Positions 135 through 40,417 of a stretch of 55,048 bases of DNA are shown here, piece after piece. Position numbers and translations under genes: made by a program. The notes beneath the pieces are model-generated. The model did not search any database, was not told the DNA's origin, and saw only the letters and a list, made by a program, of their open reading frames with translations. The DNA comes from an uncultured Rickettsiales bacterium (lineage in GTDB: Bacteria; Pseudomonadota; Alphaproteobacteria; Rickettsiales; UBA6187), in the NCBI GenBank assembly GCA_964476705.1, contig CAYZBM010000003.1, positions 1 to 55,048 of the forward strand. Direction: 5' to 3'. How positions within the stretch are numbered: position 1 is the first letter of the stretch; every line of letters starts with the position of its first letter.

Positions 135-373
135 TATAGTATTTCATGATTGAAATGACCTATGTTATGGATCCTTCAGCAAAACATAAATGGTATTATA
201 AGCATATGTTTTTTCAGGATATCTAGCATCATAGAAATAATTTAATAATTATTGATTACAGGTAAATTATTTCTTGATCTACTATAGATCCCAGAATAAA
301 TCCGGGATATGTAGCATCATAGTAATGATTTATGTAAGTAATTAAAGTGGAAAATCATTGCTTGATCTACTAT
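135..373 (+). repeat. Modular palindromic repeat, composite copy: A module + H2 (135-286) followed directly by an S module (287-373)
   Basis: Starts TATAGTATTTCATGATTGAAATGA. H1 hairpin runs GGATCC..AAAACATA..TATGTTTT..CAGGAT. H2 inner stem is AGAAATAATTT/AAATTATTTCT and ends CTACTATA at 286. Then GATCCCAGAATAAATCCGGGATAT plus a second H2 ending CTACTAT at 373. Near-identical to 38440-38590. Confidence 0.9.
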
Positions 374-378
374 GTTTA

Positions 379-561
379 CTAACTCATCCAATTATCATTT
401 ACTTTCCTGCGAACGCAAGGAGCTTTCTGGCTAGTGTTTTTCCCGTTATCGTCAGCAGCCACGCACGGACTTTTAAGTTCGTATTTTTTTTCAGTATCTT
501 CGGCATAGCAGCCGCTTAAAAAACTGATGGCAAATAACATGCAAATTGTTAGAAATTTCAT
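379..561 (-). CDS. Small (60 aa) Cys-containing lipoprotein, function unknown
   Basis: N-terminal signal with lipobox FLSGC. The mature ~40-aa peptide has two further Cys (SPCV, APCV) and ends RRKVNDNW. Confidence 0.55.
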   Translation of the reverse strand: MKFLTICMLFAISFLSGCYAEDTEKKYELKSPCVAADDNGKNTSQKAPCVRRKVNDNWMS

Positions 562-758
562 TTTTATATACCTGATTTTAGGTTTTTAACTTGTCCTAAG
601 AAGTATTATAATCAGAAAATAATCTTGAGTCCAAAGTTAAATGTAAAAAAATAATATAAAATTATCGATCATTGTTATTGTAAGAGTAATTTATAATTGT
701 ATAATCTCTAGCCTCTTACAAATGTTATTAAAAATATATTAAAGTATAAATAAAAGTT

Positions 759-3539
759 ATGCCTGAAGCAAATCAAGAAGTAGTCTCTATAGTTAAAGAA
801 ATGCGTGAATCTTATTTAGATTACGCGATGAGTGTTATTGTTAGTAGGGCAATACCAGATGTTTGTGATGGTTTAAAGCCAGTTCATCGGCGGATATTAT
901 TTTCGATGAATGAAACAGGCTGTGATTTTAATAAGCCATACCGAAAGTCGGCACGTATAGTAGGTGAGGTGATGGGTAAGTATCACCCGCATGGCGATGC
1001 AGCTATTTATCAATCTTTAGTCAGAATGGCGCAGAGTTTTTCGATGCGAGTTCCGCTGATTGACGGGCAAGGAAATTTTGGTTCGATGGATGGCGATTCT
1101 CCGGCGGCTATGCGTTATACTGAGTCACGTATGGCTAAAATAGCCCATACTTTACTTGATGATATTGATAAAGAGACGGTTGATTTTCAAGAAAATTATG
1201 ATGGTTCAGAAGTAGAGCCAAAAGTGTTGCCAGCACGTTTTCCTAATTTGCTAGTAAATGGTGGTGGTGGTATCGCAGTTGGTATGGCGACTAATATTCC
1301 GCCACATAATTTAGGGGAAATTATTGATGCCTTATTGTTATATTTAGAAAATAATGATGTAACTGATGAAGAATTAATCCGGATAGTTCCAGGTCCAGAC
1401 TTTCCAACAGGCGGAGTTATTTTAGGTAGGTCTGGTTCAACAAGTGCCTTAAGAACTGGACGTGGCTCTGTAGTTATGCGCGCTAAATATCATATAGAAG
1501 AGTTAAAAAATAGATCAGCAATAATATTTACCGAAATCCCTTATCAAGTAAATAAAGCCTTAGTTGTTGAAAAAATTGGTGAATTAGTTCGCGAGAAAAA
1601 GATTGAAGGCATTGCCGAAATGCGTGATGAGTCTGATAAAGATGGAGTAAGAATAGTTATTGAAGTTAAGCGTGATGCGGTAATTGATGTTTTGGTTAAT
1701 CAATTATTTAGTTATACCCAATTACAAACTTCTTTTAGTGTAAATATGTTGGCGCTGGATGCTGGTATTCCGCGTTTGATGAATTTAAAGCAGGTGCTTG
1801 CTGCCTTTGCAGTTTTTAGAGAAACAGTTATAACTAAAAGAACGGCTTATCTTTTAAATAAAACTCGTAACAGGGCCCATGTTTTAATAGGTTTATCTAT
1901 AGCAGTTGCTAATATTGATGAGGTTATTGCGGTAATTCGTAGTGCGCCAGATCCAAATACGGCTAAAGATTTATTAATGGAAAAAGCTTGGATTGCTGAC
2001 AATGTTAATGTTCTAATTAATTTAGTTGATGATAGCAGAAATAAAATAGTAAATGGCAAATGTTACTTTACTGAGACGCAAGCTAAGGCAATTCTTGAGA
2101 TGAAACTTTCTAGACTTACAGGTTTAGAGCAAGGAAAAATTAGTGCTGAGCTAGAAGAATTAGCCATCCACATTAAAGATTATCTTGATATATTACATTC
2201 ACGCAAAAGAGTTATTGATATTATTTGTTCTGAGCTTAAGGCAATAAGAGAAGAATTTGCAACTCCTCGAATGACAGAATTTTCTGAAAGCGAATTAGAT
2301 ACTGATATGGAAGATTTAATCCCGGTTGAAGATATGGTGGTAACCGTTACTTCTGGTGGTTATATAAAAAGAGTTCCGCTTTCGACTTATAGAGCACAAA
2401 AACGTGGTGGTAAAGGCAGGTCAGGTCTATCGATGCATGATGAAGATATAACTACTAAAGTTTTTGTGGCGACAACTCATACTCCGGTGTTATTTTTCTC
2501 GACTAAAGGTAAAGTCTACAAACTTAAAGTCTATAAATTACCATTAGGGGCGCCTCAATCAAAAGGTCGCGCTTTAATTAATATTTTCCCGTTGGATGCT
2601 GATGAATCTATAAATGTAGTTATGCCACTTCCTGAAAATGAAAAAGAATGGGATAAAATGGGCATAATATTTGCAACTAACTCAGGAACGGTAAGACGTA
2701 ATGACCTTTCTGACTTTAAATCAATTCAAGCTAATGGCAAAATTGCAATGAAACTTGATGATGGTAGTAGGTTAGTTAGTATAAAAACTTGTTTAGAAAA
2801 TGATCATATTTTAATGAGTAGTAAAGATGGTAAATGTATAAGATTCCCAGTTACAGCAGTTAGAGAGTTTAAAAGTCGAGCTTCAACTGGAGTTAGGGCA
2901 ATAAAATTATCTGAGGGTAATGAGGTTGTTTCTATGGATATTTTGTCTGGAGTTGAGCTTCTAGATAATGAACTTAGGGATCAATATTTAAAAATCTCAG
3001 TTGCTTTAAGAATTTCTTTATCTGAAATTTTACATAAAATAGCTCACGAACAAGAAGAAAATAAAGCTAATTTCCAGCAACAAGTTGATGAGATTTTGGC
3101 AAAAATAGAAAGCACTTTAAGTAAAGAGAAAATTCTTGAGCTAGCAAAAACTGAAGAATTTATTCTTTCAATAACTGAAAATGGTTATGGTAAACGTAGT
3201 TCGGCTTATGAATATCGAGTTACTAATCGAGGCGGTACTGGTATTGTAAATATTATAACCTCTGAGCGAAATGGTAAGGTGGTTGCAAGTTATCGGGCTG
3301 ATGATGGTGATCAAGTTTTACTAATTACGACCAAAGGAAAGTTAATTAGATGCGCAGTTAATGAAATTAGAATTACTAGTCGTAGTGCGCAAGGTGTTAG
3401 AATCTTTAAGACTGCAGATGATGAAAAAGTTATTTCAGCAGCTAGTATCGAAGAGTCTGCTGAATCTAAAGAGGTTTTGGAGGTGAAGGAAACTGAGATA
3501 AGTTCTGATATTAATAGTGATGTTGGTACGGAAGAATAA
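759..3539 (+). CDS. gyrA: DNA gyrase subunit A
   Basis: 926 aa. Contains HPHGDAAIYQSLVRMAQ (QRDR region) and the catalytic Tyr context AAMRYTE. The C-terminal beta-pinwheel repeats carry an inserted helical segment. Confidence 0.97.
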   Translation: MPEANQEVVSIVKEMRESYLDYAMSVIVSRAIPDVCDGLKPVHRRILFSMNETGCDFNKPYRKSARIVGEVMGKYHPHGDAAIYQSLVRMAQSFSMRVPLIDGQGNFGSMDGDSPAAMRYTESRMAKIAHTLLDDIDKETVDFQENYDGSEVEPKVLPARFPNLLVNGGGGIAVGMATNIPPHNLGEIIDALLLYLENNDVTDEELIRIVPGPDFPTGGVILGRSGSTSALRTGRGSVVMRAKYHIEELKNRSAIIFTEIPYQVNKALVVEKIGELVREKKIEGIAEMRDESDKDGVRIVIEVKRDAVIDVLVNQLFSYTQLQTSFSVNMLALDAGIPRLMNLKQVLAAFAVFRETVITKRTAYLLNKTRNRAHVLIGLSIAVANIDEVIAVIRSAPDPNTAKDLLMEKAWIADNVNVLINLVDDSRNKIVNGKCYFTETQAKAILEMKLSRLTGLEQGKISAELEELAIHIKDYLDILHSRKRVIDIICSELKAIREEFATPRMTEFSESELDTDMEDLIPVEDMVVTVTSGGYIKRVPLSTYRAQKRGGKGRSGLSMHDEDITTKVFVATTHTPVLFFSTKGKVYKLKVYKLPLGAPQSKGRALINIFPLDADESINVVMPLPENEKEWDKMGIIFATNSGTVRRNDLSDFKSIQANGKIAMKLDDGSRLVSIKTCLENDHILMSSKDGKCIRFPVTAVREFKSRASTGVRAIKLSEGNEVVSMDILSGVELLDNELRDQYLKISVALRISLSEILHKIAHEQEENKANFQQQVDEILAKIESTLSKEKILELAKTEEFILSITENGYGKRSSAYEYRVTNRGGTGIVNIITSERNGKVVASYRADDGDQVLLITTKGKLIRCAVNEIRITSRSAQGVRIFKTADDEKVISAASIEESAESKEVLEVKETEISSDINSDVGTEE

Positions 3540-3567
3540 GGTTGAGTCGTTTTTTCTCTAAGTCGTC

Positions 3568-4110
3568 TTAAATTGGGTTTCTTAGAGAGAAAGGCTTAAA
3601 CTCCCGGATAGTTTTTTTGCACTCAATAGAGCAGCTGGTGTATAACTCAGGATTAACTTCAAAAAAATTATAATATTTTTTTTGCTGAATATAAAATATT
3701 CCCAATATATTATTTTTAACTATATTTGATTTATTGTGGGATATAGTAGATTTTGTTAGGACTTGAGCGATTTGTTTGGCTAGCGTTGCGTATTCTTTAG
3801 TATAAAATATTTTGTTGTTTTCTAGATCGTATTTTTCTATTAAATTATTTAATTCATTAGAAATTATATTTTTTATATTGGTAGGAATTTCAGAGATTTT
3901 TATATGATTTTCTTTTAAAGCTTCGGCTATACTTTTTCCTTCTAGTTTATGAATATCTATCCAAGAATTTTGATTTTTATCATTTTTATCTCTTAATAAT
4001 ATCCTAATTTTCCAATGTTTTCTGGTCGATAATAATATTTTTCTTACCAAAAAATGTTGGTTGTGCTCAATATTGGCGTAAGGAAAGCCTAATAATTGTA
4101 ATATTTTCAT
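3568..4110 (-). CDS. Hypothetical protein (180 aa), Lys/Asn/Ile-rich
   Basis: Uninterrupted ORF in AT-rich DNA between gyrA and a repeat copy. No motif recognised. Confidence 0.5.
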   Translation of the reverse strand: MKILQLLGFPYANIEHNQHFLVRKILLSTRKHWKIRILLRDKNDKNQNSWIDIHKLEGKSIAEALKENHIKISEIPTNIKNIISNELNNLIEKYDLENNKIFYTKEYATLAKQIAQVLTKSTISHNKSNIVKNNILGIFYIQQKKYYNFFEVNPELYTSCSIECKKTIREFKPFSLRNPI

Positions 4111-4245
4111 CTATTATATTAGTTAATATTAATATGTAGTAATTTAAAAGGTTAATCTATTAATTTTTATTATATTAAATCATCCTTAAGAAAGGGTTAA
4201 TTGTATATTCGAAGCTTATTTGCTGGATTTTGGCTTCTGATATTA

Positions 4246-4399
4246 TATAGTATTTCATTAATTGAAATGAATGTATTTTTGGATCCCGAATAAAACATAA
4301 AATAGTATTATAAGGATATGTTTTTTCAGGATATGTAGCATTATAAAAATGATTGATGATATATGTATTTTACTGTCAATCATTTTTTAATCTACTATA
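4246..4399 (+). repeat. Modular palindromic repeat, A + H2 copy
   Basis: TATAGTATTTCATTAATTGAAATGA...GGATCCCGAATAAAACATA...TATGTTTTTTCAGGATAT...H2 inner stem AAAAATGATTG/CAATCATTTTT...AATCTACTATA. Confidence 0.9.
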
Positions 4400-4454
4400 T
4401 ATTGATTATTGCAGATTGCGTTTTAAAATAGATTAGCTTAAACAAGGAGCTTTT

Positions 4455-4946
4455 ATGCGTATAGGAGTCTATGCTGGAACTTTTGATCCTATAACTATGG
4501 GGCATGTGGATATTATAAAAAGAGCAGCAAAAATAGTAGATAAATTAATTATTGGGGTAGCCCAAGATTCGGTTAAAATACCTCTTTTTTCCCTAAATGA
4601 GCGTATCGAGATGGTTAAGCATGATGTGGCTGGTCTACATTCTTTAGGAGCTGATTTGCATGTGGAGGGGTTCTCTGGATTGTTGGTTAAATTTGCTAAG
4701 GATCATAATGCAACTTTACTTATCAGGGGTTTGCGGGCTGTATCTGATTTTGAATATGAGTTTCAAATGGCGGGAATGAATAGTAAATTGGCGACTAATT
4801 TAGAGACAGTTTTTTTACCAGCTACTGAAAGTACGCACTTTATTGCCTCTCGTTTCGTGAAAGAGGTGGTAAGGTTAGGAGGAGATATAAAGGGTTTGGT
4901 TTCTGGGTATGTAGCGGATAAATTGCAAAATAAGTATAATAACTGA
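4455..4946 (+). CDS. coaD: Phosphopantetheine adenylyltransferase
   Basis: GTFDPITMGHVDIIKRA nucleotidyltransferase motif; 163 aa; RBS AAGGAG upstream. Confidence 0.95.
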   Translation: MRIGVYAGTFDPITMGHVDIIKRAAKIVDKLIIGVAQDSVKIPLFSLNERIEMVKHDVAGLHSLGADLHVEGFSGLLVKFAKDHNATLLIRGLRAVSDFEYEFQMAGMNSKLATNLETVFLPATESTHFIASRFVKEVVRLGGDIKGLVSGYVADKLQNKYNN

Positions 4947-5064
4947 TTTTAGCTATTGTGCTAAAAATAATCCGATTAAGGCTTTTAACGCATTTTTATG
5001 TCAATTAAGAGTTTTTCTGTTGGCTTAAGTGCAGTCTATTTTTAAAAATATAAATTTGGAACTT

Positions 5065-12613: not shown

Positions 12614-15600
12614 TTATTTCGGAGGTTGCCCATTTCCTCTTCCTCGCGCACCTCTTCCTCTTCCAGCATTAGTAGCCCTGGCACCAACTAGATGAGTTGA
12701 GCTATCTTTCGATGTGGAATCATGGCGTCCTTTTTTCATTGCGTTAGCAAGCTTTACTGCCGCTGTTGCTTGGTCCATAGCGGCGGTTAGATCTTCTGCT
12801 AAAGGATTATCTCCCATCGTTATACTCAGACTATTTGCGAATGTGCTTCGAGCTGAGGTAGCTGAGCTGGCATTAGCTTTATCGGCACCAGTTGTTATTG
12901 CCGCGCTATCTGTAGGTTTACTTACCGCTAAATGAAGATTACGCGGCTTTGGCTGAGGGCTAAGTTTTGGTGCTGCCGCTGCAGTAGTTGCAGTTGTAGA
13001 AGAAGTGCCTGTAGTAGAGCTAGAATTTGCAGAAGCAGCGCCTTCTACGTTACGTGGAGTTGCTATAGGAGGGCGAGCTAGAGTAGAATATTTAGGTGTT
13101 GATGCGGCGGTGATAACTGCAGCTCCAGGGCTTGGAGTTTTAGTAGTTATTGAAAGCGTTGTTGTTTGGCTACGTATAGGAAGTGTAGGTGATGCTGCTG
13201 CCGCTGTAGTTATAGTAGAAGCATATAATACAACATCAGCTGCTGATACAGACTCTGCAGCTTTAGCCTTATCTGCTGCAGTTCCTAGCTCACTTAATGC
13301 TGTTAATAAATCCATATCTTTATCTTTTTCCTCATTAGCTTGTGCTAATGTAAAATCAGGCATTGATCTCGTAGGTTGAGTCCGCGAACTTCTACCAGTT
13401 CCACTAACTGATCCGGTCCATGTTCCTGTTGATACACTTCCATAATCATAAGGTTGTTTTCTTTCTATTCTAGCTGGTTTTGCAAGCGCGTTATAAACCA
13501 GATATTCCAGTTCTTTAGGTAAGCCTAAATAACTCTCGATATTTTCTGAAGTACAAATTGCTTTATATAATTCTAATTTAAGCTTATTTTCTTCAGAGGC
13601 TCTATTAATTGCATTGATCTCATCAGGAGTTAATAAAAATAGATGGATTTTTGGTGCTTTAGTTATTTCATTGCCAGCAAAAATAGATAGATAATATTTA
13701 TTATCTTTGTCAAAAGTAACACCAAAACTAAACTTTCTTTCTTCAGATTTATTTATTTGTACAATTTTTTCTGAGAAATTTTTAAGTAAGTGATTTTCTT
13801 CTGTAGCTTTTTCTACAGTAAAGAAATTATAAGGATTCTTAGCAAAATCTGTACTTGCTTTTCCTTTTGATTTTTGGTCTTCTTCCATATATTTTAATAA
13901 ATCTATGGAAGCAATTTTCTGTCCCTCACTGTCTAATATATTAGCGCTTCTACCTTGATCATCTGGATTAACTCGTACGGTATGAGTACTGATATGTTGG
14001 CTAGGATTGGCTAGAACTGTAAGATTAGCTACGGCAATTTTATTTGCGTGGATAAAATCTTGTACTTCCTGATTAGTTCTTTTTTGTATGCTGGCTGAAA
14101 TTTTATTTACTAGAACTTCAGCTGCAACTGAGGGCTCTAATTCAACTCTAGTCATTTCAACTTTGCCACGTGAAATTACTATATGTGTTTTGTTCTTTTC
14201 TGTTTCTATAGATACTTCGTCTTTATGGTTGATAATAGCAATATCGTTATGAGATAAATATTCCTTTAATATATTTTTTAATAGTTCAAGTGCTTTATCT
14301 TTTTCTTTTTTATTTTGGTTATGAGCCATTAATGCTTTAATGGCTCCTTCAATAAGCTTGTCTGCAATTTTAGGATCAATAGGTTTTGAACTTTGTTCTA
14401 TTGGTTGGGCATTTTCTGCTTGTGCTGCTTCTGTAGTAGTTTTTTTTTCTTTTTTATCTAAAGTGCTTGGCACTCTAGTTTGATCAAATTTTATTTGGTC
14501 CTTTTTATATTCTGTTATTGAAAATATTGTACTTTGTTCTCCTGCTTGCCTTCTATCTGTCTTACGATTATTTAATAATAATTTATGAACATAATATTGT
14601 AGTGGATGAGTTAAAAATTCAGCAGTATTTGGCTTGCAGGCTTTATATAATATTTCTTTTATGCGATCTATATCAGTTTCTTTATTTAGTGAAGCTAGAA
14701 TGTCTTTGTCTAATTTAACTTTATATACATCTCCAGTTATGCCAAGCTTGCCTTTAGCTACGCATAGGTAATAAGATCCTGCATCACTGCCATCTGCTAC
14801 CATGGTAAAATTAATCTCTTTAATATCACTTTTGGTAATATCTTGATTAAGTTGACATAAATTTTCTTGAGCTTTATTATATTCTCTATCATTTTCTTGA
14901 GAAGCAGTTTTTTGTTGTCTAAGTGCTGATAAAAAATTTTGAGGTGTTTTTTTAAGTTCCTTTAGCGCTTTATTTTTATCAGAGTTATATTGAGATAAAA
15001 ATAAAGACCAATCAAAATTTGCTACATGTCGTTCTTCTTCTTCTTTAACTCCTATAACCTTTAGAAAAGCACCATTGCTTTCTGTATCTATTTCAAAGGT
15101 ATGTGATTCTCTGTCATCTTGGGCTGGATTAAGAAGAATCATATAGCGGTTAATGGCATCCATTACCGGATAATTATCTAATTTATTAAGAGATTCTGTT
15201 TGGTATTGCTTAAAACTTTTCTCCAGTTCACTTAAAATAACATTAGGTCCTAAAAGTGGGTGGCCGCTCCAGGTGGCAATATTATTTTGGTTCTCATCGA
15301 AAACTTGTAAAGTTAGTTGTTTATTTTTTTCGTCTATGCTGTGTTTGATTGTGCAGTTGATTGGAAACATATTTGTTGCCAAAATTTTTGTTGCTAATTC
15401 TTTTATATTATAACCTAACGAATTATTGGTTATATCTTGAGCTACTGCTTTAGCAATATGAGCTGTATATGTGCTAGTGTTTGGGATATTGGTTAAGCTG
15501 TTTGCTTTATTATTATTACTTTTATGTTTTACATCAAGTAGTCCAGCTGTTTCTTTAATAAGTTTTGCCATATCTTCATCAACAACGGCATCTATTTTTC

Positions 15601-15742
15601 TAAAACCATCCGCCCCAGCAATTGCTATACAAAGCTCTGCGATTTCCTGATTAAAGACTTTTTGTTGTTTAGATTTGTCTGCTGCTGTAGCTGATCCGGT
15701 ACTTGATCTTGATTCTTGTTGGCCTTGTCTACTTGCTGCCAT
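12614..15742 (-). CDS. Large ORFan protein (1042 aa): two tandem ~290-aa modules plus a ~280-aa Ala/Thr/Ser/Pro low-complexity tail ending in an RG-rich peptide
   Basis: A 3.1-kb open frame in AT-rich DNA with RBS AAAGGA upstream. Internal duplication is visible in the translation (LLNPAQ..SHTFEI vs LANPSQ..THTVRV; YYLCVAKG..LYKACK..YYVHKLL vs YYLSIFAG..LYKAIC..YLVYNAL). C-terminus is GARATNAGRGRGARGRGNGQPPK. Confidence 0.8.
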   Translation of the reverse strand: MAASRQGQQESRSSTGSATAADKSKQQKVFNQEIAELCIAIAGADGFRKIDAVVDEDMAKLIKETAGLLDVKHKSNNNKANSLTNIPNTSTYTAHIAKAVAQDITNNSLGYNIKELATKILATNMFPINCTIKHSIDEKNKQLTLQVFDENQNNIATWSGHPLLGPNVILSELEKSFKQYQTESLNKLDNYPVMDAINRYMILLNPAQDDRESHTFEIDTESNGAFLKVIGVKEEEERHVANFDWSLFLSQYNSDKNKALKELKKTPQNFLSALRQQKTASQENDREYNKAQENLCQLNQDITKSDIKEINFTMVADGSDAGSYYLCVAKGKLGITGDVYKVKLDKDILASLNKETDIDRIKEILYKACKPNTAEFLTHPLQYYVHKLLLNNRKTDRRQAGEQSTIFSITEYKKDQIKFDQTRVPSTLDKKEKKTTTEAAQAENAQPIEQSSKPIDPKIADKLIEGAIKALMAHNQNKKEKDKALELLKNILKEYLSHNDIAIINHKDEVSIETEKNKTHIVISRGKVEMTRVELEPSVAAEVLVNKISASIQKRTNQEVQDFIHANKIAVANLTVLANPSQHISTHTVRVNPDDQGRSANILDSEGQKIASIDLLKYMEEDQKSKGKASTDFAKNPYNFFTVEKATEENHLLKNFSEKIVQINKSEERKFSFGVTFDKDNKYYLSIFAGNEITKAPKIHLFLLTPDEINAINRASEENKLKLELYKAICTSENIESYLGLPKELEYLVYNALAKPARIERKQPYDYGSVSTGTWTGSVSGTGRSSRTQPTRSMPDFTLAQANEEKDKDMDLLTALSELGTAADKAKAAESVSAADVVLYASTITTAAAASPTLPIRSQTTTLSITTKTPSPGAAVITAASTPKYSTLARPPIATPRNVEGAASANSSSTTGTSSTTATTAAAAPKLSPQPKPRNLHLAVSKPTDSAAITTGADKANASSATSARSTFANSLSITMGDNPLAEDLTAAMDQATAAVKLANAMKKGRHDSTSKDSSTHLVGARATNAGRGRGARGRGNGQPPK

Positions 15743-15878
15743 ATTCTTTTCCTTTATACTAACTGTATTTAGATATTTATTATTGCTAATAAATTAATTG
15801 ATAATTAATTTAGCTTTCTGTCGAGGATTATCACTTGGGTAAATATTTGTAAATTAAATAATAAATATATATTCAAAA

Positions 15879-16007
15879 TATAGCAGTTAAAGCTTGCGCT
15901 TACCTAAATTTTTTATAGATCCCAGACTAAATCTGGGATATGCAAAATCATAGCAATGATTTATGGTAAGTAAATAAAGTGGAAAATCATTGCTATGATT
16001 TGCTATA
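15879..16007 (+). repeat. Modular palindromic repeat, L' + S copy
   Basis: TATAGCAGTTAAAGCTTGCGCTTACCTAAATTTTTTATA, then GATCCCAGACTAAATCTGGGATAT (perfect 8-bp stem), then an H2 with a 16-bp perfect stem ATCATAGCAATGATTT/AAATCATTGCTATGAT. Confidence 0.9.
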
Positions 16008-17025: not shown

Positions 17026-18558
17026 ATGGCACAATCAAAAGAAAGTTTAAGTGCAGTTAATAGTGCAGTTAAGAAATTAATACGTCTTGTGGTGGGGGAT
17101 TTACAATCTTTTGTAAAAAGAGATGGTAATTTTGAGAATCCTTTGCTAGTGCTTACCAGAAAAGAGATAGAAAGTCTATCTATATGGAAATATATTGGTA
17201 AGGATTATATTGGTAAAATATGTGGAGTTGAAGCTAAAGTTGAGGAAAAAGACGGGAAAGAGTTAAAAATATCAAAATTTACGAATATTTTACCGCAAAC
17301 ACCTACATATTTTCCTTGGCAAAAGGCAAGCGTTCTTCTTGATTATCAATTAGATGGTACAAGAGCTCAAACTGAAGAAAAAAAAATAGAGATAGCTACT
17401 TTAGCTATGAGAGAGCTGGCTAAAGAGTTGGTTCCTTCAGTTTTAAGTGAAATGAACTTAGCTCTAAAAAAGTTTGTAACTGAAAATGCAAAAACAGATA
17501 AGCAGAGTATTTTTAATAAAATTAAAAATACTCTTGAAGAGAGTAAAGGGAATACAGCAAAAACAAATCCGATAAATGTTTCGACATCTAGTGAATCTTC
17601 TAGAGATATTAATCTAGGTTTAGAAATAAATTATGACCTAATAGATATAGAAGAATTAGATATTATAATTAAATCTCTCTATAAATTATCAGCAATTATA
17701 AATATAGCAAAAGATGAACCAAAAAAAACTCAGAGATCTCCTGATACACCTGATGATGATGGTATCACTGAGCGAACTATTCTCTATGTTTTGCGGGATA
17801 ATTTATGTTATCAGATAAGCTATACTGAATTACCTGTGATGGATGAAAGGTTTAAAGGTTTTGAAGATTTAATACTGAAGGCCAATAATATTATATATTA
17901 TTCTGGTGATTATAATGATTTAGAAACTTCTGAGATAAACGCTCTTTTTAAAGATATTTCTGATAAAATAATTTCTTTATATCCAGGACTTAAAGAGTTT
18001 TTAGAAGAAATAAATGCAAAAATAGCTAAAGAATATGCTCGTTTTGCTCCTGATAATGCATCTGCAGCAGTTTCAGCATCAGCTCATTCTGATGCAGATG
18101 TTGGTACTCCTCGGAACATGGATTTCTTTACAAAAATGGAAGGAAGTGATGATCCTTTGTTCTCGGCTGAAGAGCTAAGTAAACTAAAATTTAAAATATT
18201 TAAAGATGATTATTTTGATATTAATCAATCAAATATTAATAAATTAAAAGAATTTTGGAGTAAATTTTTGAACCAAAAGGTTTTTGATTTTAATGATCAA
18301 CCCATAAATAAGCCATTATTTGATAATCTTTTAAAAGCTTGTGGTGAAGTATTGCCAGGTCTAATTGTAATCCCTACTATAAATATAGTAAAGAATAGTG
18401 ATGTACATATTTTTCTGTCTAGTTTTGCTACATTTTATGAACTTTGTTTGGATTGTAAGAAAGAAAAAGCTGAAAAGAGTACTACTACACTATCTGGAGC
18501 TAATGCGGCTAGTGCAGCTCAAGTTGGAGGCCTAACTCCAGCTGGATTACCTGGTTAA
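17026..18558 (+). CDS. ORFan protein (510 aa), acidic, no recognisable domain
   Basis: 1.5-kb open frame with RBS AGGAAA upstream. No signal peptide; Ala/Ser-rich patches at ~aa 345-360 and at the C-terminus. Confidence 0.75.
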   Translation: MAQSKESLSAVNSAVKKLIRLVVGDLQSFVKRDGNFENPLLVLTRKEIESLSIWKYIGKDYIGKICGVEAKVEEKDGKELKISKFTNILPQTPTYFPWQKASVLLDYQLDGTRAQTEEKKIEIATLAMRELAKELVPSVLSEMNLALKKFVTENAKTDKQSIFNKIKNTLEESKGNTAKTNPINVSTSSESSRDINLGLEINYDLIDIEELDIIIKSLYKLSAIINIAKDEPKKTQRSPDTPDDDGITERTILYVLRDNLCYQISYTELPVMDERFKGFEDLILKANNIIYYSGDYNDLETSEINALFKDISDKIISLYPGLKEFLEEINAKIAKEYARFAPDNASAAVSASAHSDADVGTPRNMDFFTKMEGSDDPLFSAEELSKLKFKIFKDDYFDINQSNINKLKEFWSKFLNQKVFDFNDQPINKPLFDNLLKACGEVLPGLIVIPTINIVKNSDVHIFLSSFATFYELCLDCKKEKAEKSTTTLSGANAASAAQVGGLTPAGLPG

Positions 18559-32549: not shown

Positions 32550-33485
32550 TTAAATCAATTTTTCAAATTCAGGGAGTATAGTAAATAAATCGCCAACTAG
32601 ACCATAATCAGCAATTTCAAATATTGGAGCATTTTCATCTTTATTAATGGCGACAATAATTTTACTATCTTTCATTCCGGCTAAATGTTGAATAGCTCCT
32701 GAAATACCAACTGCAATATATAATTCTGGTGCTACTATTTTACCAGTTTGGCCAACTTGATAATCATTAGGAACATATCCGGCATCAACTGCAGCGCGTG
32801 ATGCGCCAATAGCACAATTACCTAATTTATCAGCTATTTTTTTAAGGAGTGAAAAATTCTCCGCGCTTCCTAAACCGCGTCCTCCTGATATTACTATTTT
32901 AGCGCTAGTTAGTTCAGGTCCGGTTCCTCCTGATTCTTTACTAGTTACAAATTCTACTAAATTATTAGCAATTTTTGCAGTTAATTTTTCTTGTGGAATA
33001 TTTTGATTATTGTCAATTTTAGCTTTAGCAAAAGCGGTACTTCTGATAGTTAGAATCTTAATTTTATCTTCACTTTGAACCGTAGCTATAATATTTCCGG
33101 CATAAATAGGGCGCTTAAAGCTATTTTCGTTTAAAATTTCAATTACATCAGTTATTTGGCTCATATCTAGAAGGGCGGCAACTCTAGGTAATATGTTTTT
33201 ACCAAAGGTAGTTGCTGGAGCTAGTATATGGGTATAATTTTGAGCAATTTCTAAAATTAAAGCGCTAAAATTTTCAGCTAGAGGATTTTTATAAGTAGGA
33301 TCATCACAACTAATTACTTTAGTTAACCCCGTAATTTTTTTAGCATTTTCAATAACCTGTTCGCAGTTACTACCTAAAACTAAAAGTTCAACATCTTTAG
33401 CGATAATATTTGCGGCCATAATGCTGTTTAAAGTTGCATCTTTTATTACGCTATTATTATGCTCGGCTATAACTAAAACTTTCAT
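32550..33485 (-). CDS. etfA: Electron transfer flavoprotein subunit alpha
   Basis: PELYIAVGISGAIQHLAGM FAD-binding signature. Confidence 0.95.
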   Translation of the reverse strand: MKVLVIAEHNNSVIKDATLNSIMAANIIAKDVELLVLGSNCEQVIENAKKITGLTKVISCDDPTYKNPLAENFSALILEIAQNYTHILAPATTFGKNILPRVAALLDMSQITDVIEILNENSFKRPIYAGNIIATVQSEDKIKILTIRSTAFAKAKIDNNQNIPQEKLTAKIANNLVEFVTSKESGGTGPELTSAKIVISGGRGLGSAENFSLLKKIADKLGNCAIGASRAAVDAGYVPNDYQVGQTGKIVAPELYIAVGISGAIQHLAGMKDSKIIVAINKDENAPIFEIADYGLVGDLFTILPEFEKLI

Positions 33486-34231: not shown

Positions 34232-34255
34232 ATTTTATTATCTCCCTTGTTATAA

Positions 34256-34384
34256 TATAGCAGTTAAAGTTTGCGCTTTCCTAAATTTTTTATGGATCCA
34301 GGTTTAAGTACCCTGGATATGTAGCATCATAGCAATGATTTATTTAAATAATTAAAACGGAAAATCATTGCTTAATCTACTATA
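34256..34384 (+). repeat. Modular palindromic repeat, L' + S copy
   Basis: TATAGCAGTTAAAGTTTGCGCTTTCCTAAATTTTTTAT + GGATCCAGGTTTAAGTACCCTGGATAT (stem ATCCAGG/CCTGGAT) + H2, ending AATCTACTATA. Confidence 0.9.
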
Positions 34385-34460
34385 ATTTCGGCTACTCACT
34401 CTTTTAATTAATCTTTTAGCATTATGGTGGGGATTTGTTAAATAATTATTAACAATAGGA

Positions 34461-35102: not shown

Positions 35103-35152
35103 GCAACAAGCATAATAAACTTGGGCTTTAAAGCAAAATAAGGGATGTTATA

Positions 35153-36025
35153 ATGAAAAATATAAGAAAAGCGGTGTTTCCAGTAGGTGGTAGAGGGACT
35201 AGATTTTTGCCGGCAACTAAGTCTGTGCCTAAAGAAATGCTATCGGTTGCTGCTAAACCTCTAATTCAATATGCTTACGAAGAAGCTTTAGAGGCGGGGA
35301 TTGAAGAATTTATTTTTATTACTGGGCGTAATAAAAATGCTATAAATAACCATTTTAACCATGCTTATGAACTACAGTCATTTTTAAGTAAAAAAGAGCA
35401 GTTTGATACTTTAGCTAAGGTTAAAAGTTGGTTACCTAAGGCTGGAAATATCGTTTTTATTCCCCAACAAGAGCCTTTTGGCTTAGGTCATGCAGTTTGG
35501 TGTGCGCGAAATGTAATTGGTAATGAACCTTTTGCGGTAATTTTGGCTGATGAAATGGTTTTAGATGAAACTCCAGCCTTAAAACAAATGTTAGGTAGTT
35601 ATAAAAAAGTTAAAAGTAACATTATTGCCGTTGCTGAAGTTGCCAGAAATCAGGTGCAAAATTATGGAATTATTGCTAAAGAACAAGACATTAGCGCAAA
35701 TTTAAGTAAGATAAAGACTATGGTTGAAAAGCCAGACCCTAGCGAGGCTCCGTCTAATCTTTCAATAACTGGTAGATATATATTGCAGCCAGAAATATTT
35801 GACTATCTAGAAAAAGTCATAAAAAACCATGACGGTAAAGGAGAGATTCAATTAACCGATGCTATGGCTTTTATGGCTAAGAAACATGATTTTTATGCCC
35901 ATAAACTTAAAGGACAAAGATTTGACTGTGGTGTAAGATCAGGTTTTTTAGAAGCTAATATTGCTTATGAAATGCTCGAAATGGGCGAAAAAGCGGTTAA
36001 GGATATTTTGCGGAAATATATTTAG
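35153..36025 (+). CDS. galU: UTP-glucose-1-phosphate uridylyltransferase
   Basis: KAVFPVGGRGTRFLPATKSVPKEML signature. Confidence 0.95.
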   Translation: MKNIRKAVFPVGGRGTRFLPATKSVPKEMLSVAAKPLIQYAYEEALEAGIEEFIFITGRNKNAINNHFNHAYELQSFLSKKEQFDTLAKVKSWLPKAGNIVFIPQQEPFGLGHAVWCARNVIGNEPFAVILADEMVLDETPALKQMLGSYKKVKSNIIAVAEVARNQVQNYGIIAKEQDISANLSKIKTMVEKPDPSEAPSNLSITGRYILQPEIFDYLEKVIKNHDGKGEIQLTDAMAFMAKKHDFYAHKLKGQRFDCGVRSGFLEANIAYEMLEMGEKAVKDILRKYI

Positions 36026-36026
36026 T

Positions 36027-36446
36027 TTAGGCTATTTTGTTATAACTATGTTGGCTTAAAAAAATGCTATTAAAGGCAGTGTTAGGCTTTTTAGTTGGAA
36101 TTGGATTTTTTTCCGGAAATTCTTCTAGTATTAATTTTTTTTCTTTGGCGTAATCTGCCGCTTTTTTGTTGTTGCTATCTATATAATCAAGATTGGCACT
36201 GCTTTGAATTAAGAATGTAATTATATCTTTTTGAGTGTTTTTATCAGATTTGGTTTCAGGGGTTGCTTCTATTGCAAGCATTAATAAACTTTTTTTAGGT
36301 TCGTCTCTTAATCTAAGATTAACAAGTTTATTTCTTTCTTCATCATCTAACATTGATAAAGTTATCCAAATATAAGAGTATGATTTTTTGCTTGGGATAG
36401 ATACGGATTTTATTAGCTTTCTAACTATTTGATTATTTTCTACCAT
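36027..36446 (-). CDS. Hypothetical protein (139 aa) with one ankyrin-repeat-like segment
   Basis: SLLMLAIEA...DIITFLIQSSANLDYIDSNNKKAADYA fits the loose ANK pattern (L..A......v..LL..gA..n..D..g.tA.d.A). Convergent with galU, 1 nt apart. Confidence 0.45.
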   Translation of the reverse strand: MVENNQIVRKLIKSVSIPSKKSYSYIWITLSMLDDEERNKLVNLRLRDEPKKSLLMLAIEATPETKSDKNTQKDIITFLIQSSANLDYIDSNNKKAADYAKEKKLILEEFPEKNPIPTKKPNTAFNSIFLSQHSYNKIA

Positions 36447-36607
36447 GTCAGTCTCTTTTTTTTAATTCGCCTTGGTAATATATTAATATATTAATAAATT
36501 ACCTTTTGAAATTTTGCAATTAAAAAAATGAAAAAAATATATCATATTTTTATTTACGAGGTTATCTTAAGCGAAAATATATTATTTAGGTGGAGTAGTA
36601 TTAAATT

Positions 36608-37930
36608 ATGAAAATTACAGTAATTGGTACGGGTTATGTTGGGTTGGTGTCTGGAGCTTGTTTTGCTAAATTAGGACATGATGTAATTTGTGTCGATAAA
36701 GATAAAGATAAAATTACCAATCTTAAAAAGGGTATTATTCCGATTTATGAACCAGGGTTAAAAGATCTGGTATTTACTACTGTAGCTAAAAATAAACTAT
36801 CTTTTACTGCAGATTTAAAGTTAGCTTTAGCTAAAACTGAAATAGTTATTATCGCTGTAGGTACGCCAACTGATGATAAAACTGGCGATGCAGATTTATC
36901 TTATGTATTTGCTGCGGTTAAAGAAATTGCTATTTTGCTTAAAAAAAAGATAGTTTTTTTAGTTAAATCGACAGTACCTGTAGGTACAAATGCTAAAATA
37001 AAAAAAATAGTAACTGAATTAAGACCGGATCTTAAATGTTCTTTTGTTTCAAATCCTGAATTTTTGCGCGAAGGAAGTGCGATAAAAGATTTTATGGAGC
37101 CTGACCGGGTGTTAATTGGCGTAGAATCGAATAAAGATAAAAAAACTATGCTAGATTTATATAAAAAATTAGCACAAAAAAAATATCCAATTCTATTTAC
37201 CGATATAGCAAGTGCTGAACTTACTAAATATGCAGCTAATGCTTTTTTAGCGATGAAAACTTCATTTGTTAATGAGATAGCAAATATTTGTGATGCAGTA
37301 AAGGCTAATATAGAAGATGTAGTTTTAGGAATAGGAATGGATCAACGAATTGGTTTAAAACATATGAAGCCTGGCCCTGGTTATGGCGGTTCTTGTTTTC
37401 CTAAAGATAATTTAGCCTTAGTTGGGATTGCTAAAAGAGTTGGAGCTAGATCAAGTATAGTTGAAACAGTTATAAAGAGTAATGAACTGCACAAACTAAA
37501 AATGGCCGAGAAAATAAATAAAGTTTTTAAGCAAGAATTAAAAAATAAAAAAATTGCAATATTAGGCCTAACTTTTAAAGCCAATACAGATGATATGCGT
37601 TATGCAGCTTCTTTAACCATAATTCCTAAATTACTTGAATATGGGGCTATCTTAAATTTATATGATCCAGAAGGAATGAAGGAAGCGCAAAAATATTTAT
37701 CCTTACCAGATAACAAAAAGCAAATGAGTTTTACTAATTCGTTAGAAGTTGCAATAAAAGATGTTGATGCTGTGGTAATTTTAACTGAATGGGCTGAATT
37801 TACAAAAATCACCCCGCTAAAATTAAAGAAAAATATGGCAGGTAAAATAATTTTTGATTTTAGAAATATATTAGAATCTAAATTATTTAAAAAAGCTGGA
37901 TTTGAATATTTTGGTATAGGAAGAAGATAA
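36608..37930 (+). CDS. ugd: UDP-glucose 6-dehydrogenase
   Basis: GTGYVGLVSGACFA Rossmann motif and the catalytic GGSCFPKD. Confidence 0.95.
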   Translation: MKITVIGTGYVGLVSGACFAKLGHDVICVDKDKDKITNLKKGIIPIYEPGLKDLVFTTVAKNKLSFTADLKLALAKTEIVIIAVGTPTDDKTGDADLSYVFAAVKEIAILLKKKIVFLVKSTVPVGTNAKIKKIVTELRPDLKCSFVSNPEFLREGSAIKDFMEPDRVLIGVESNKDKKTMLDLYKKLAQKKYPILFTDIASAELTKYAANAFLAMKTSFVNEIANICDAVKANIEDVVLGIGMDQRIGLKHMKPGPGYGGSCFPKDNLALVGIAKRVGARSSIVETVIKSNELHKLKMAEKINKVFKQELKNKKIAILGLTFKANTDDMRYAASLTIIPKLLEYGAILNLYDPEGMKEAQKYLSLPDNKKQMSFTNSLEVAIKDVDAVVILTEWAEFTKITPLKLKKNMAGKIIFDFRNILESKLFKKAGFEYFGIGRR

Positions 37931-38041
37931 TATAACTTAAATATTAAAAAATATTTTGCTCAACCTTGTATTAGTTTTTTTTGCTGCTATATTTTTAATC
38001 TAGGATAAAAAAACAAAAAATCTTTATGTGAGGAAAAAAAT

Positions 38042-38335
38042 ATGTCATACGGAGTTACTGCTGAGCAATTACGTTCTTATATCGAAAGATTAGAGCGCCT
38101 TGAAGAAGAAAAAAAGAATATGGCACAAGATATGAAAGAAGTCTTTGCTGAAGCTAAAGGTAATGGTTTTGATGTTAAGACTATTCGTACTATTTTAAGA
38201 TTACGTAAAATGGATGCTAATGATCTACAAGAGCAAGAATATTTACTCGATACCTACAAAAGAGCTTTAGGTATGCTTCCGGAAATGGAAGAGGAAAGTA
38301 CTGAAGTTGCCGAAAAAGAAGCGCAAGCGGCTTAA
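38042..38335 (+). CDS. gapR: DUF2312/UPF0335 protein, GapR-type nucleoid-associated protein
   Basis: LRSYIERLERLEEEKKNMAQDMKEVFAEAKGNGFDVKTIRTILRLRKMD closely matches the conserved core of Caulobacter GapR. Confidence 0.85.
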   Translation: MSYGVTAEQLRSYIERLERLEEEKKNMAQDMKEVFAEAKGNGFDVKTIRTILRLRKMDANDLQEQEYLLDTYKRALGMLPEMEEESTEVAEKEAQAA

Positions 38336-38439
38336 GGTGTAATTTATAATCTATACTACAGGAAGCTCCCAAGTATAGATTATCCATTATTATAACTGAA
38401 AAAATATCGTAAGATATTTTTTCACGGGCAACTATATTA

Positions 38440-38590
38440 TATAGTATTTCATGATTGAAATGACCTATATTATGGATCCTGAACAAAACATAAATAGTAT
38501 TATAAGTATATGTTTTTTCAGGATATATAGCATCATAGAAATAATTTAATAATTATTGATTAGAGGTAAATTATTTCTTGATCTACTATA
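38440..38590 (+). repeat. Modular palindromic repeat, A + H2 copy
   Basis: Near-identical to 135-286, including ~15 nt of upstream flank (TTTTCAC...ACTATA). H2 inner stem is AGAAATAATTT/AAATTATTTCT. Confidence 0.9.
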
Positions 38591-38642
38591 TATTGTAAGA
38601 TGTTTTTTCGCTGAGGACTTTATATCCCGGTCGTAAAGCAAC

Positions 38643-38688
38643 AAAAAAAGCTCCTCACAAAATTAATGTAAGGAGCTTCTTTTTTTTA
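38643..38688. terminator. Bidirectional rho-independent terminator
   Basis: AAGCTCCT / AGGAGCTT stem with an A7 run upstream and a T8 run downstream. Serves the minus-strand DUF465 gene and possibly gapR. Confidence 0.7.
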
Positions 38689-38698
38689 TTTCGCAGTA

Positions 38699-38881
38699 TT
38701 AAGCGGCTTTAGCCAGATGTACGCTGCGCTCTAGAGCTGCTATTTCATCCTTAATACTAAGTTTTTCCCTCTTTAATGTCAGGGCCTCGTCGGACCTGTG
38801 ATGCTTATATGCATTATATATTTTTTCTTCTAATTCATGATGCTTCTTGTATAAAGAGTCAATATGTGCTTTAATAGACAT
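38699..38881 (-). CDS. DUF465 (YdcH-like) small coiled-coil protein
   Basis: 60 aa; the HELEEKI....H.....D.....LKREKL.IKDEI pattern is typical of DUF465. Confidence 0.7.
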   Translation of the reverse strand: MSIKAHIDSLYKKHHELEEKIYNAYKHHRSDEALTLKREKLSIKDEIAALERSVHLAKAA

Positions 38882-39016
38882 TAAGAACCTCCAATTTTGT
38901 AAGAATTATAGACATAAAATTATTGCTATCATTATAACATATTTTTTGTAATTCTGCTAAATAATTTTTTAAAAATATAGTTAATAAATAGTTAAAAAAT
39001 AACATAATTTTTAAAT

Positions 39017-39610
39017 ATGACAAAAGAACAAAAAAAGAAAATTATTATTGGTATAAGTGGAGCCTCTGGAGCTATTTATGGGATTAGAGCGTTAGAGATG
39101 TTAAAATCTTTTTCTGAGGTAGAAACCCATCTTATTATAAGTAAGGCTGCTGTTATCACTATTAACCATGAAACCAGCTATAAACTAGAAGATGTTATTG
39201 GGCTTGCCGATCAATATTATTTAATAAGTGATATTGGAGCTTCTATTGCTAGCGGTTCTTTTAAAACTCATTCTATGCTTATTGCTCCTTGTTCAATAAA
39301 GACCATGTCTGAGATTGCCTGTGGTATAACTAGTAATCTTATGAGTCGTGCGGCTGATGTAGTTTTAAAAGAGAATAAAAAGTTAGTATTAATGCTCAGG
39401 GAAACCCCACTACATTTTGGTCATTTGAGTAATTTGACTAAACTTAGCCAAATAGGTGCAATTATAGCTCCTCCAGTTCCGGCATTTTATACGTTACCTA
39501 GGAATATAGATGATATAATTAACCATTCAGTGGCTAGATGTCTTGATATACTGGGCTTTGAGGTTGATGTGCTTAAAAGGTGGCAAGGGCTTAAACAATC
39601 TAACTTATAG
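39017..39610 (+). CDS. ubiX: Flavin prenyltransferase UbiX
   Basis: IIIGISGASGAIYGIRALEML and PCSIKTMSEIACG motifs. Confidence 0.93.
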   Translation: MTKEQKKKIIIGISGASGAIYGIRALEMLKSFSEVETHLIISKAAVITINHETSYKLEDVIGLADQYYLISDIGASIASGSFKTHSMLIAPCSIKTMSEIACGITSNLMSRAADVVLKENKKLVLMLRETPLHFGHLSNLTKLSQIGAIIAPPVPAFYTLPRNIDDIINHSVARCLDILGFEVDVLKRWQGLKQSNL

Positions 39611-39756
39611 CTATGTTATAATAAAAATCTAAGGAAATAGCCTTTTTTTATATTAAAAAATATGTTATAATGGAACTATGACCTCTATATATACTCATAG
39701 ATATTATTACTAGAGTTGGGGTTTTTAAATAAGGTGGGATTCTATTTTATCTTAGA

Positions 39757-39909
39757 TATAGTATTTCTTAATTGAAATGAATGTATTTATGGATCCCGAA
39801 TAAAACATAAAATAGTATTGTAAGTATATGTTTTTTCGGGATATGTAGCATTGTAGAAAGAATTTATTATATATGTATTTTACTGTCAATTCTTTCTTAA
39901 TCTACTATA
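39757..39909 (+). repeat. Modular palindromic repeat, A + H2 copy
   Basis: TATAGTATTTCTTAATTGAAATGA...GGATCCCGAATAAAACATA...TATGTTTTTTCGGGATAT. H2 inner stem is AGAAAGAATT/AATTCTTTCT, ending AATCTACTATA. Confidence 0.9.
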
Positions 39910-39996
39910 ATTTAAAACAATAGTATAAGTAATACTAATGGGCCCTGTTTTTATTTTTTTGTAAAATTTTATTTTCAAAAAGGGAAGTATTTAGAT

Positions 39997-40197
39997 ATGG
40001 TTGAAGAACAAAAAATGAGAGATAAGATTGCGGTGCTTGATAGAGAATATAATCAGATCAAGGTAGACATAGTTGAGCTTACCCATGACAAAATATTTGA
40101 TCAGTTGCAGGTGCAAAGACTTAAAAAACGTAAATTAAATCTAAAAGATCAGATAACATATTTACGGACGTCGTTATGTGATGATATCATTGCCTAA
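39997..40197 (+). CDS. DUF465 (YdcH-like) small coiled-coil protein, second copy
   Basis: 66 aa; D....QRLKKRKLNLKDQI matches the DUF465 C-terminal motif. Confidence 0.65.
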   Translation: MVEEQKMRDKIAVLDREYNQIKVDIVELTHDKIFDQLQVQRLKKRKLNLKDQITYLRTSLCDDIIA

Positions 40198-40241
40198 TTT
40201 TTTATCATTAATTTTAGTTTATATTTGTTTTTATATTATTA

Positions 40242-40417
40242 TATAGTAAAAGAAGTTGAGAAATACTTATTTGAATGGATCCTTCAGTAAAACATAAATT
40301 TGTTATAAGGATATGTTTTTTCAGGATGACCTGTCCTTAGATTTAGTTCGGGATGTAGCATTATAGTAATGATTTATTTTTTAAAAAAAATAGCAAATCA
40401 TTACTTGATCTACTATA
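40242..40417 (+). repeat. Modular palindromic repeat, divergent A module + degenerate short hairpin + H2
   Basis: GGATCCTTCAGTAAAACATAAA..ATATGTTTTTTCAGGAT, then GACCTGTCCTTAGATTTAGTTCGGGAT, then H2 with inner stem AGTAATGATTT/AAATCATTACT, ending GATCTACTATA. Confidence 0.85.

Follow-up and report, generated by a model that had tools for sequence, protein, structure and literature searches.

A family of composite hairpin repeats with a covarying stem in a contig of an uncultured Rickettsiales bacterium

Results

Organization of the repeat

The window analysed here, an entire metagenomic contig of 55,048 bp with a G+C content of ~32% (CAYZBM010000003.1, from an uncultured Rickettsiales bacterium), carries in its intergenic regions a composite repeat that ends in a hairpin, hereafter H2. 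The housekeeping genes present are gyrA, L21, obg, S16, rimM, trmD, L19, leuCD, leuB, cimA, cysS, gltX, nadE, etfAB, purEK, a type I secretion pair, ftsZ, dapB and those for tRNA-Tyr and tRNA-Gly. The top outside match of FtsZ is 63% identical, and the named matches belong to uncultured Alphaproteobacteria or Rickettsiales. The repeat occupies 10 of the 31 intergenic regions of at least 60 nt, all ten loci being intergenic.

The repeat units are non-coding, multi-copy and 93-177 nt in size. The basic unit consists of a hairpin based on TAT(A/G)GATCC...GGAT, followed by ATG and by H2, which ends in CTACTATA; what we call the short hairpin is the base of a longer hairpin, B. This basic unit may be preceded by 5' modules that each begin with TATAG, namely A, X or one found only once. 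Modules A, B and H2 are joined in the copies at 135-287, 4246-4400, 38440-38591 and 39757-39910, and X, the short hairpin and H2 in those at 15878-16007, 27560-27690 and 34255-34386. The other arrangements are the unique 5' module with B and H2 (40242-40418), a tandem short hairpin with H2 (283-375) and A with B only (21924-22011). Seven-nucleotide inverted termini, TATAG(T/C)A ... T(A/G)CTATA, bound every full copy and are also found in a 48-nt derivative.

In H2 itself, an outer stem that is conserved in sequence and contains three unpaired bases encloses an inner stem of 11 bp, which is capped by a variable loop of ~20 nt. The outer stem and the unpaired C7, T12 and T65 are conserved in 8 of the 9 copies, whereas the inner stem exists in six different versions, each self-complementary. 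The loop sequence splits H2 into four subfamilies, A to D. Nine copies of H2, all on the plus strand, were found by nhmmer and by a covariance model alike, with scores of 72-89 bits, compared with 22-36 bits for their palindromic echoes on the opposite strand. A flank-only pattern that leaves the inner stem unconstrained (TAGCATYRTAR-N36-48-TRATCTACTAT) matched the plus strand of the window eight times and shuffled sequences not at all; the two profile searches added the divergent H2 copy at 15940. The loci are as follows.

135-287 (+): copy 1a; module A hairpin 137-158, B hairpin 168-222 and H2 of subfamily B at 221-287 (inner arms 233-243/264-274)
283-375 (+): copy 1b, in tandem with 1a, the TATAG being common to both; short hairpin ATCCCAGA/TCCGGGAT with one A.C mismatch and H2 of subfamily A at 309-375 (inner arms 321-331/352-362, AGTAATGATTT/AAATCATTGCT, with a T.G wobble); the lipoprotein gene 379-561 on the minus strand has its stop 3 nt from the end of this copy
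4246-4400 (+): copy 2; A, B and H2 of subfamily C at 4333-4400 (inner arms 4345-4355/4377-4387, AAAAATGATTG/CAATCATTTTT); 55 nt upstream of the gene at 4455, within a divergent promoter region
15878-16007 (+): copy 3; X module, perfect short hairpin ATCCCAGA/TCTGGGAT and H2 (15940; inner arms 15952-15962/15984-15994) with a perfect 16-bp stem from 15947 to 15999, two compensated changes in the outer stem and, opposite the usual T12 bulge, an inserted A; termini TATAGCA/TGCTATA
21924-22011 (+): copy 4; modules A and B only, without H2; flanked by two minus-strand genes and downstream of the terminator of rpsD at ~22136-22170
27560-27690 (+): copy 5; X, degenerate short hairpin and H2 of subfamily A at 27623-27689 (inner arms 27635-27645/27666-27676); abuts the gltX stop codon (27691), antisense to both adjoining genes
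34255-34386 (+): copy 6; X, short hairpin ATCCAGG/CCTGGAT and H2 of subfamily A at 34319-34385 (inner arms 34331-34341/34362-34372) whose pair 10-58 has a single C.A mismatch; begins 24 nt away from the start codon of etfB and is antisense to the genes on either side
38440-38591 (+): copy 7; A, B and H2 of subfamily B at 38525-38591 (inner arms 38537-38547/38568-38578); between the convergent gapR (+) and DUF465 (-) genes, inside their terminator hairpins
39757-39910 (+): copy 8; A, B and H2 of subfamily C at 39843-39910 (inner arms 39855-39865/39887-39897, AGAAAGAATT/AATTCTTTCT)
40242-40418 (+): copy 9; TATAGTA terminus, unique 5' module, B, partial short hairpin and H2 of subfamily D at 40353-40418 (inner arms 40365-40375/40395-40405, AGTAATGATTT/AAATCATTACT, with a T.G wobble at pair 10-58); 57 nt upstream of purE
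46551-46598 (-): mini-element of 48 nt, internally deleted with both termini kept, its right end TCAATCTACTATA joined to the module A hairpin and a TATAGTA end; the sole minus-strand locus, 18 nt upstream of a pilin-like (N_methyl) gene

Covariation in the H2 helix

A 22-pair helix with three unpaired bases was written onto the nine-row alignment of H2, on which the following values rest. Standard pairs are formed by 97.9% of the cells, and in 8 of the 22 pairs both partners have changed, which amounts to 15 compensated cells. A covariation score of 0.251 was obtained, compared with 0.106 in shuffles, and the observed pairing, the count of double changes and the covariation score were each reached by none of 500 shuffles, while slid control helices gave at most two double-changed pairs. 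The same helix was predicted by RNAalifold unprompted, and as DNA every one of the nine copies adopts it, with z-scores between -2.5 and -6.9. The covariation of H2 is genuine and well above chance. A preliminary description of this DNA had reported that the H2 arms vary together and stay complementary, and every arm pair that it quoted is in the sequence. Its positions mark the first bases of the composite copies rather than H2, which lies 75-100 nt further on, and it spoke of ten copies where the window has nine of H2, the one at 309-375 having been overlooked.

The cells that are not compensated number seven, three G.T wobbles and four mismatches. The T.G wobble of the copy at 309-375 (AGTAATGATTT/AAATCATTGCT) is intermediate between the C:G and T:A variants, and pair 10-58 is found as C:G, U:A, U:G and C.A. 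The 16-bp stem noted earlier in the copy starting at 15879 was confirmed. In the preliminary description variation was limited to the inner stem; this stem does covary, but so does the outer one, as seen at pair 10-58 and in the copy at 15940, where T:A is replaced by C:G and G:C by A:T. A possible reading of each H2 arm as a REP-like (repetitive extragenic palindromic) mini-palindrome was treated as coincidence, ATCAT-AGCA-ATGAT being perfect in subfamily A only.

The short hairpin, which had also been said to covary, does so weakly. Standard pairs make up 87.5% of its cells, with three double-changed pairs, and its score was reached by 1 of 500 shuffles; four of ten copies are perfect, two have one mismatch and four are broken. 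As a separate observation, the 5' arm of the B hairpin reads TTCA at 168-222 and 40276-40329 and TGAA elsewhere (e.g. 38473-38526), a 4-nt reverse-complement swap that breaks the pairing and is of the kind left by a replication template switch.

Pattern of change between copies

Within subfamilies A and B none of the 22 inner-stem positions differs in three pairwise comparisons, while the same three pairs have 9-17 differences in the rest of the element. Three metagenomes sample other genomic copies of subfamily A, and there every variant listed over H2 is in the loop. Invariance within lineages together with compensated change between them is the signature expected of structural constraint, and H2 is best read as being constrained in its folded structure. 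The earlier proposal of selection on the fold instead of the primary sequence is retained to that extent; sequence counts as well, the outer stem and C7, T12 and T65 being conserved in eight of nine copies. The proposal had left non-selective template switching (PMC8794818) out of consideration.

Such a process would act by mutation alone: template switching in a quasi-palindrome, or hairpin repair, would copy one arm onto the other, any single change would be reverted or mirrored, and H2 would need no function. It is established in bacteria and can produce compensatory changes in one step (PMC8794818; PMC7202029, PMC8604942). Three features of the repeat fit it, namely the filling of the T12 bulge by an inserted A in the copy at 15940, giving the perfect 16-bp stem, the TTCA for TGAA in the 5' arm of the B hairpins at 168 and 40276, and the comparison of copies 2 and 8. 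These two copies differ at 7 of 22 inner-stem positions, including three compensated pairs, versus 8 of 133 positions elsewhere; relative to the rest of the element, which is 94% identical, their inner stem has thus diverged about fivefold faster (Fisher p = 0.0014). Unselected homogenization should, however, have erased the three unpaired bases of the outer stem, which are kept in eight of nine copies. Nor is a loop inversion seen between subfamilies when the alignment is inspected by eye, and the short hairpin, which lies a few nucleotides 5' of H2 and should be exposed to the same degree, has 12.5% unpaired cells versus 2.1%. We regard mutation without selection as a rather unlikely source of the covariation.

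Orientation and genomic context

Nine of the ten loci lie on the plus strand (binomial p = 0.021), whatever the direction of the adjoining genes. Copies 1 and 7 are located between convergent genes, copies 2 and 3 between divergent genes and copies 8 and 9 between tandem plus-strand genes, while copies 4, 5 and 6 are between tandem minus-strand genes and hence antisense. On the plus strand G exceeds C at third codon positions of plus-strand genes (+0.35) and of minus-strand genes (+0.24), as well as in repeat-free intergenic DNA (+0.16). Because this excess is found in both gene orientations and in intergenic DNA free of the repeat, the plus strand is taken as the leading strand, that is, the lagging-strand template. 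The orientation of the repeat tracks replication, not transcription.

These data bear on the suggestion that H2 acts as a host RNA, be it a terminator, a small RNA or an mRNA-stabilizing or processing hairpin of the kind present in REP, ERIC or Correia transcripts, with the covariation reflecting selection on RNA folding. G.U-compatible intermediates, with three T.G cells on the plus strand, would agree with this, as would the location of five copies 55-430 nt upstream of plus-strand genes, the TATAAT at the right junction of four copies, one promoter-like match (CTGTCA-17-TATAAT, 39883-39911) and the precedent of transcripts of miniature transposable elements with inverted repeats (MITEs) that are RNase III substrates (PMC2229807). 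Against it, the orientation ignores transcription, copies 4 to 6 being antisense to both neighbours and copy 7 lying between two convergent terminators, and the wobbles are not strand-asymmetric. H2 is followed by CTACTATAAT or a similar flank and by no T-run, and thus has neither the T-run after a G+C-rich stem nor the co-orientation with genes that characterize intrinsic terminators; in the stretch scanned for such sites, 38000-40600, no terminator-like site was called at H2, and separate terminators adjoin copies 1, 4 and 7. Promoter-like sites in the same stretch did not exceed the shuffled expectation (21 versus 16.9 +/- 4.4), on which ground a reading of the repeat as a promoter donor was rejected. 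The repeat is also absent from syntenic relatives and from Rfam matches: over the whole window only two tRNAs reach the gathering score, and at E<=1 the region 38380-40430 gave only sub-threshold matches, all on the terminator 38641-38685. The terminator and small RNA roles offered in the preliminary description are disfavoured by these results, and a host RNA function of any kind appears improbable.

Termini and junctions

All copies have TA at both ends, and any target duplication is inseparable from the terminal repeat. The left flank is TTA, giving TTA/TATAG across the junction, in four of the nine full copies, and CTA, TAT, AGA, AAA or TAA in the others; the right flank is AT in 4/9, and in four of the nine full copies the right junction CTACTA/TAAT creates an outward-facing TATAAT box. 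The junctions may reflect either a preference for TTATAAT-like targets or ends that are slightly longer than we have drawn them.

Termini of this kind raise the alternative of a classical MITE of the Correia/NEMIS, RUP or ERIC type, moved by double-strand cut and paste, in which an IS630/Tc1-type DDE transposase would recognize the short inverted termini and insert at TA. H2 would then be an internal palindrome and not the recognition site, its pairing being kept for some other reason or relevant only as read-through RNA. The 7-nt inverted ends TATAGYA/TRCTATA with TA on both sides in every copy, the 48-nt derivative that retains the ends only, and the flank preference (TTA on the left and AT on the right, each in 4/9) all speak for it, and the size, non-coding nature and long stem-loops agree with tabulated bacterial MITEs (PMC2229807). 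However, a protein that reads sequence would fix both arms to one sequence, so that the covariation of an internal stem is left unexplained, and a 9:1 strand bias is not expected of elements with symmetric ends. The 55-kb window holds no donor insertion sequence (IS) with termini matching those of the repeat, and a TA duplication cannot be separated from the terminal repeat absent an empty site. Overall, this alternative seems unlikely to us.

Abundance and distribution

The sequence is present in wastewater, freshwater and groundwater metagenome runs, none of them RNA. In an independent wastewater metagenome, word depth was 3-6 for unique DNA of the window and 42-318 for the repeat modules; the 10-70x excess suggests tens of copies per genome. 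Many short contigs of the same run join the modules to other flanks or in other combinations, revealing further loci. The metagenome contigs are 31-mer unitigs, too short to link both arms or to reveal empty sites, and the relatives are too distant for intergenic alignment. A groundwater relative, ~92% identical in coding DNA (e.g. 33266-33416), also carries H2 copies, and its contigs on 27587-27686 include an outer arm of the 15940 type (T>C, G>A and C>A at 27626-27629). The family is thus older than the split of these lineages.

Searches with a hidden Markov model and a covariance model, as well as a de novo repeat search, detected no repeat in the contigs of the nearest relatives (FtsZ 59-63% identical), which are syntenic. 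In GTDB genomes and JGI metagenomes the matches to the flank-only H2 pattern were all chance matches (e.g. in a Granulicatella coding sequence), and a viral-contig scan and plasmid and phage BLAST searches returned no repeat. A 565-aa pseudo-protein assembled from stop-free six-frame translations of the repeats, with which spurious open reading frames (ORFs) on other copies were sought, had no match at E<=1, and a literature search for the sequence strings of the repeat gave chance matches only. In our reading, a single lineage of uncultured low-GC alphaproteobacteria has seen the expansion of this family.

Neighbouring genes and other features

Two further hairpins lie directly 5' of copies of the repeat:

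88-124 (+): Z-like hairpin, terminator-like, GAAAAAA...TTTTTTC; directly 5' of copy 1
38397-38424 (+): second Z-like hairpin; directly 5' of copy 7, downstream of gapR

Both have flanks in common (ACTG..GAAAAAA and TTTTTCAC..ACTATAT) and different inner stems, each of them perfect. In the groundwater run a contig joins GGGCCTACCCTG, as found at 49-60, to a stretch resembling 38372-38428. These hairpins may constitute a further module (Z) with its own covariation, their membership in the repeat being uncertain. The start of the window (1-60) lies inside an apparent degenerate B-type arm, TGTTCATTTTTCAGGAT, so that the contig probably broke at a repeat.

Several genes are consistent with an alphaproteobacterial host: 38042-38335 codes for the nucleoid protein GapR, 38699-38881 (-) and 39997-40197 are two DUF465 genes flanking the repeat cluster, and 52580-53260 (-) codes for a retropepsin-like aspartyl protease. 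No Pfam or NCBIfam match was obtained for three large ORFs, 12614-15742 (-; 1042 aa), 19817-21796 (-; 659 aa) and 17026-18558 (+; 510 aa); copy 3 is at the 5' end of the first. The L21 gene (5904-6440) has a ~78-aa Ala/Lys-rich C-terminal extension encoded by 39-nt DNA repeats that form a separate family.

Discussion

A possible mode of propagation

We favour, tentatively, the view that the repeat is a non-autonomous, mosaic mobile element of REPIN/MITE type and that the folding of H2 is needed for its propagation; the strand bias suggests that H2 folds as single-stranded DNA (ssDNA) at the replication fork. Traits of mobile elements are the inverted termini, preserved even in the 48-nt derivative, the tandem and mosaic copies, and insertions lying immediately next to stop and start codons. 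The copies would be propagated by an enzyme whose gene is located outside the window and which requires folded H2. Only copy lineages whose arms still pair would leave descendants, which would produce invariant stems within subfamilies and compensated differences between them. As the least certain step, the form recognized could be ssDNA exposed at the fork, as for the Y1/HUH transposases of the IS200/IS605 TnpA and REP-associated tyrosine transposase (RAYT/TnpA-REP) types; recognition of ssDNA is the most likely mode because nine of ten loci share the leading strand irrespective of the transcription of their neighbours. We infer the mobility, the enzyme and the active strand alike. There are precedents: compensatory changes are common across REPIN hairpins (PMC3116915), TnpA-REP requires the folded ssDNA REP with its bulge (PMC8266576) and IS200/IS605 elements insert in the lagging-strand template (PMC5027513). 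The ssDNA-transposase hairpin already put forward in the preliminary description agrees with the 9:1 strand bias, though the window provides no transposase gene for it.

Several observations weigh against propagation through a folded strand at the fork. Among the window ORFs of at least 100 aa scanned against Pfam and NCBIfam there is no match to a transposase or recombinase, and no contig in four metagenomes precisely skips an element and so represents an empty site. The sample consists of ten loci on one 55-kb contig, and the strand bias could be regional or due to chance (p = 0.02). The inverted, TA-ended termini TATAG/CTATA look more like those of a cut-and-paste MITE than of an IS200-type element. 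The fast inner-stem divergence between copies 2 and 8 is not predicted by simple purifying selection. Finally, H2 is almost symmetric (GTAG...CTAC), so that the active strand cannot be told from H2 itself, and the wobbles, tried as an indicator of the folding strand and set aside as uninformative, are not strand-asymmetric (three G.T on the plus strand versus two on the minus strand).

A bolder version of this reading, which we think improbable, would make H2 the recombination or recognition site of a structure-specific ssDNA enzyme, HUH or integrase-like, with a combination of features not seen before. If true, recognition through conserved extrahelical bases as in attC and REP would be found together with short inverted termini and with insertion biased to one replication strand. 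The fast-changing but always complementary inner stem (7/22 positions differing between copies otherwise 94% identical) would then serve as a variable address or specificity segment.

Interspersed hairpin repeats shape the intergenic DNA of bacteria, and the spread of REP sequences by RAYTs is still being worked out. The present family is a clean, small example from a poorly sampled, uncultured alphaproteobacterial lineage, and it pairs a bulged outer stem conserved in sequence with an inner stem that covaries freely. If a complete genome confirmed the strand bias and revealed the enzyme, the family would add an AT-rich, alphaproteobacterial case of ssDNA transposition, and it would offer a natural test of whether selection on folding or template-switch mutation is the cause of compensatory changes.

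Comparison with known systems

Integron attC sites have conserved outer boxes, extrahelical bases, a variable but complementary stem, a variable loop and a single orientation, and H2 resembles them in these traits and in that structure prevails over sequence. The recombination of attC sites as folded ssDNA is mentioned in work on REP (PMC8266576). In contrast to integrons, the repeat is not part of a cassette array and no integrase was found among the scanned ORFs of the window; housekeeping genes of either orientation (gyrA, ribosomal proteins, leuCD, gltX, etfAB, purEK and others) separate the copies, and these genes are syntenic with those of relatives that do not carry the repeat. A CIR-type repeat was rejected, as no GANTC site could be seen in the element by eye.

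The ends of Correia elements also begin with TATAG. With Correia/NEMIS of Neisseria and with RUP, ERIC and RPE, the repeat shares a length of 100-200 bp, a non-coding, multi-copy character, terminal inverted repeats with 5'-TA-3', long stem-loops formed from transcripts or strands, and size variants generated by internal deletion (PMC2229807). It differs in its terminal repeats, 7 nt long compared with 24 nt in Correia, in its strong strand bias, and in that the covarying stem is internal and is not the terminal repeat. RPE is often found in frame inside protein-coding genes, whereas all ten loci described here are intergenic. No sequence similarity to any described element was found, RPE sequences not being among those compared.

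The IS200/IS605 family has hairpins with unpaired bases that are recognized as ssDNA, and its orientation is tied to the lagging-strand template (PMC5027513). Our observation of 9/10 loci on the G-rich leading strand, although from a small sample (p = 0.021), points in the same direction. However, these insertion sequences lack inverted termini and target duplications and insert 3' of a fixed tetra- or pentanucleotide, while the present repeat has inverted termini and a left flank that is only loosely conserved (TTA in 4/9).

The REP sequences and their REPIN or BIME arrangements, which occur with RAYT genes in Pseudomonas, E. coli and Stenotrophomonas, are like H2 high-copy, intergenic, imperfect palindromes that form mosaics. 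REPINs likewise form a long hairpin with conserved ends and a less conserved middle in which compensatory changes are common (PMC3116915), and the conserved bulges of REP are needed for recognition of the folded ssDNA (PMC8266576). At its 5' foot (alignment columns 3-6) H2 has GTAG in six of nine copies, mirrored by CTAC at the 3' foot; REP has a conserved GTAG immediately 5' of the palindrome (PMC8266576), while in three H2 copies it is replaced by CTAG, ATAG and GCAA. The GTAG of H2 is not a free 5' tail, because it is paired with CTAC inside the predicted stem. H2 differs further in being AT-rich, in its much larger loop (~20 nt) and in the 7-nt inverted, TA-ended termini of the repeat. Its copies are single hairpins, all nine on the plus strand, and not inverted doublets or units of alternating orientation, the tandem pair at 221/309 being direct. 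No RAYT/TnpA-REP (Y1 HUH) gene, which accompanies REP sequences as a single copy with repeats on its flanks, is found among the scanned ORFs of the 55-kb window. The family described here is new, while covarying hairpins are already known for bacterial hairpin repeats; it is thus a fairly ordinary kind of element and a well-supported case of a known phenomenon, introducing no new principle.

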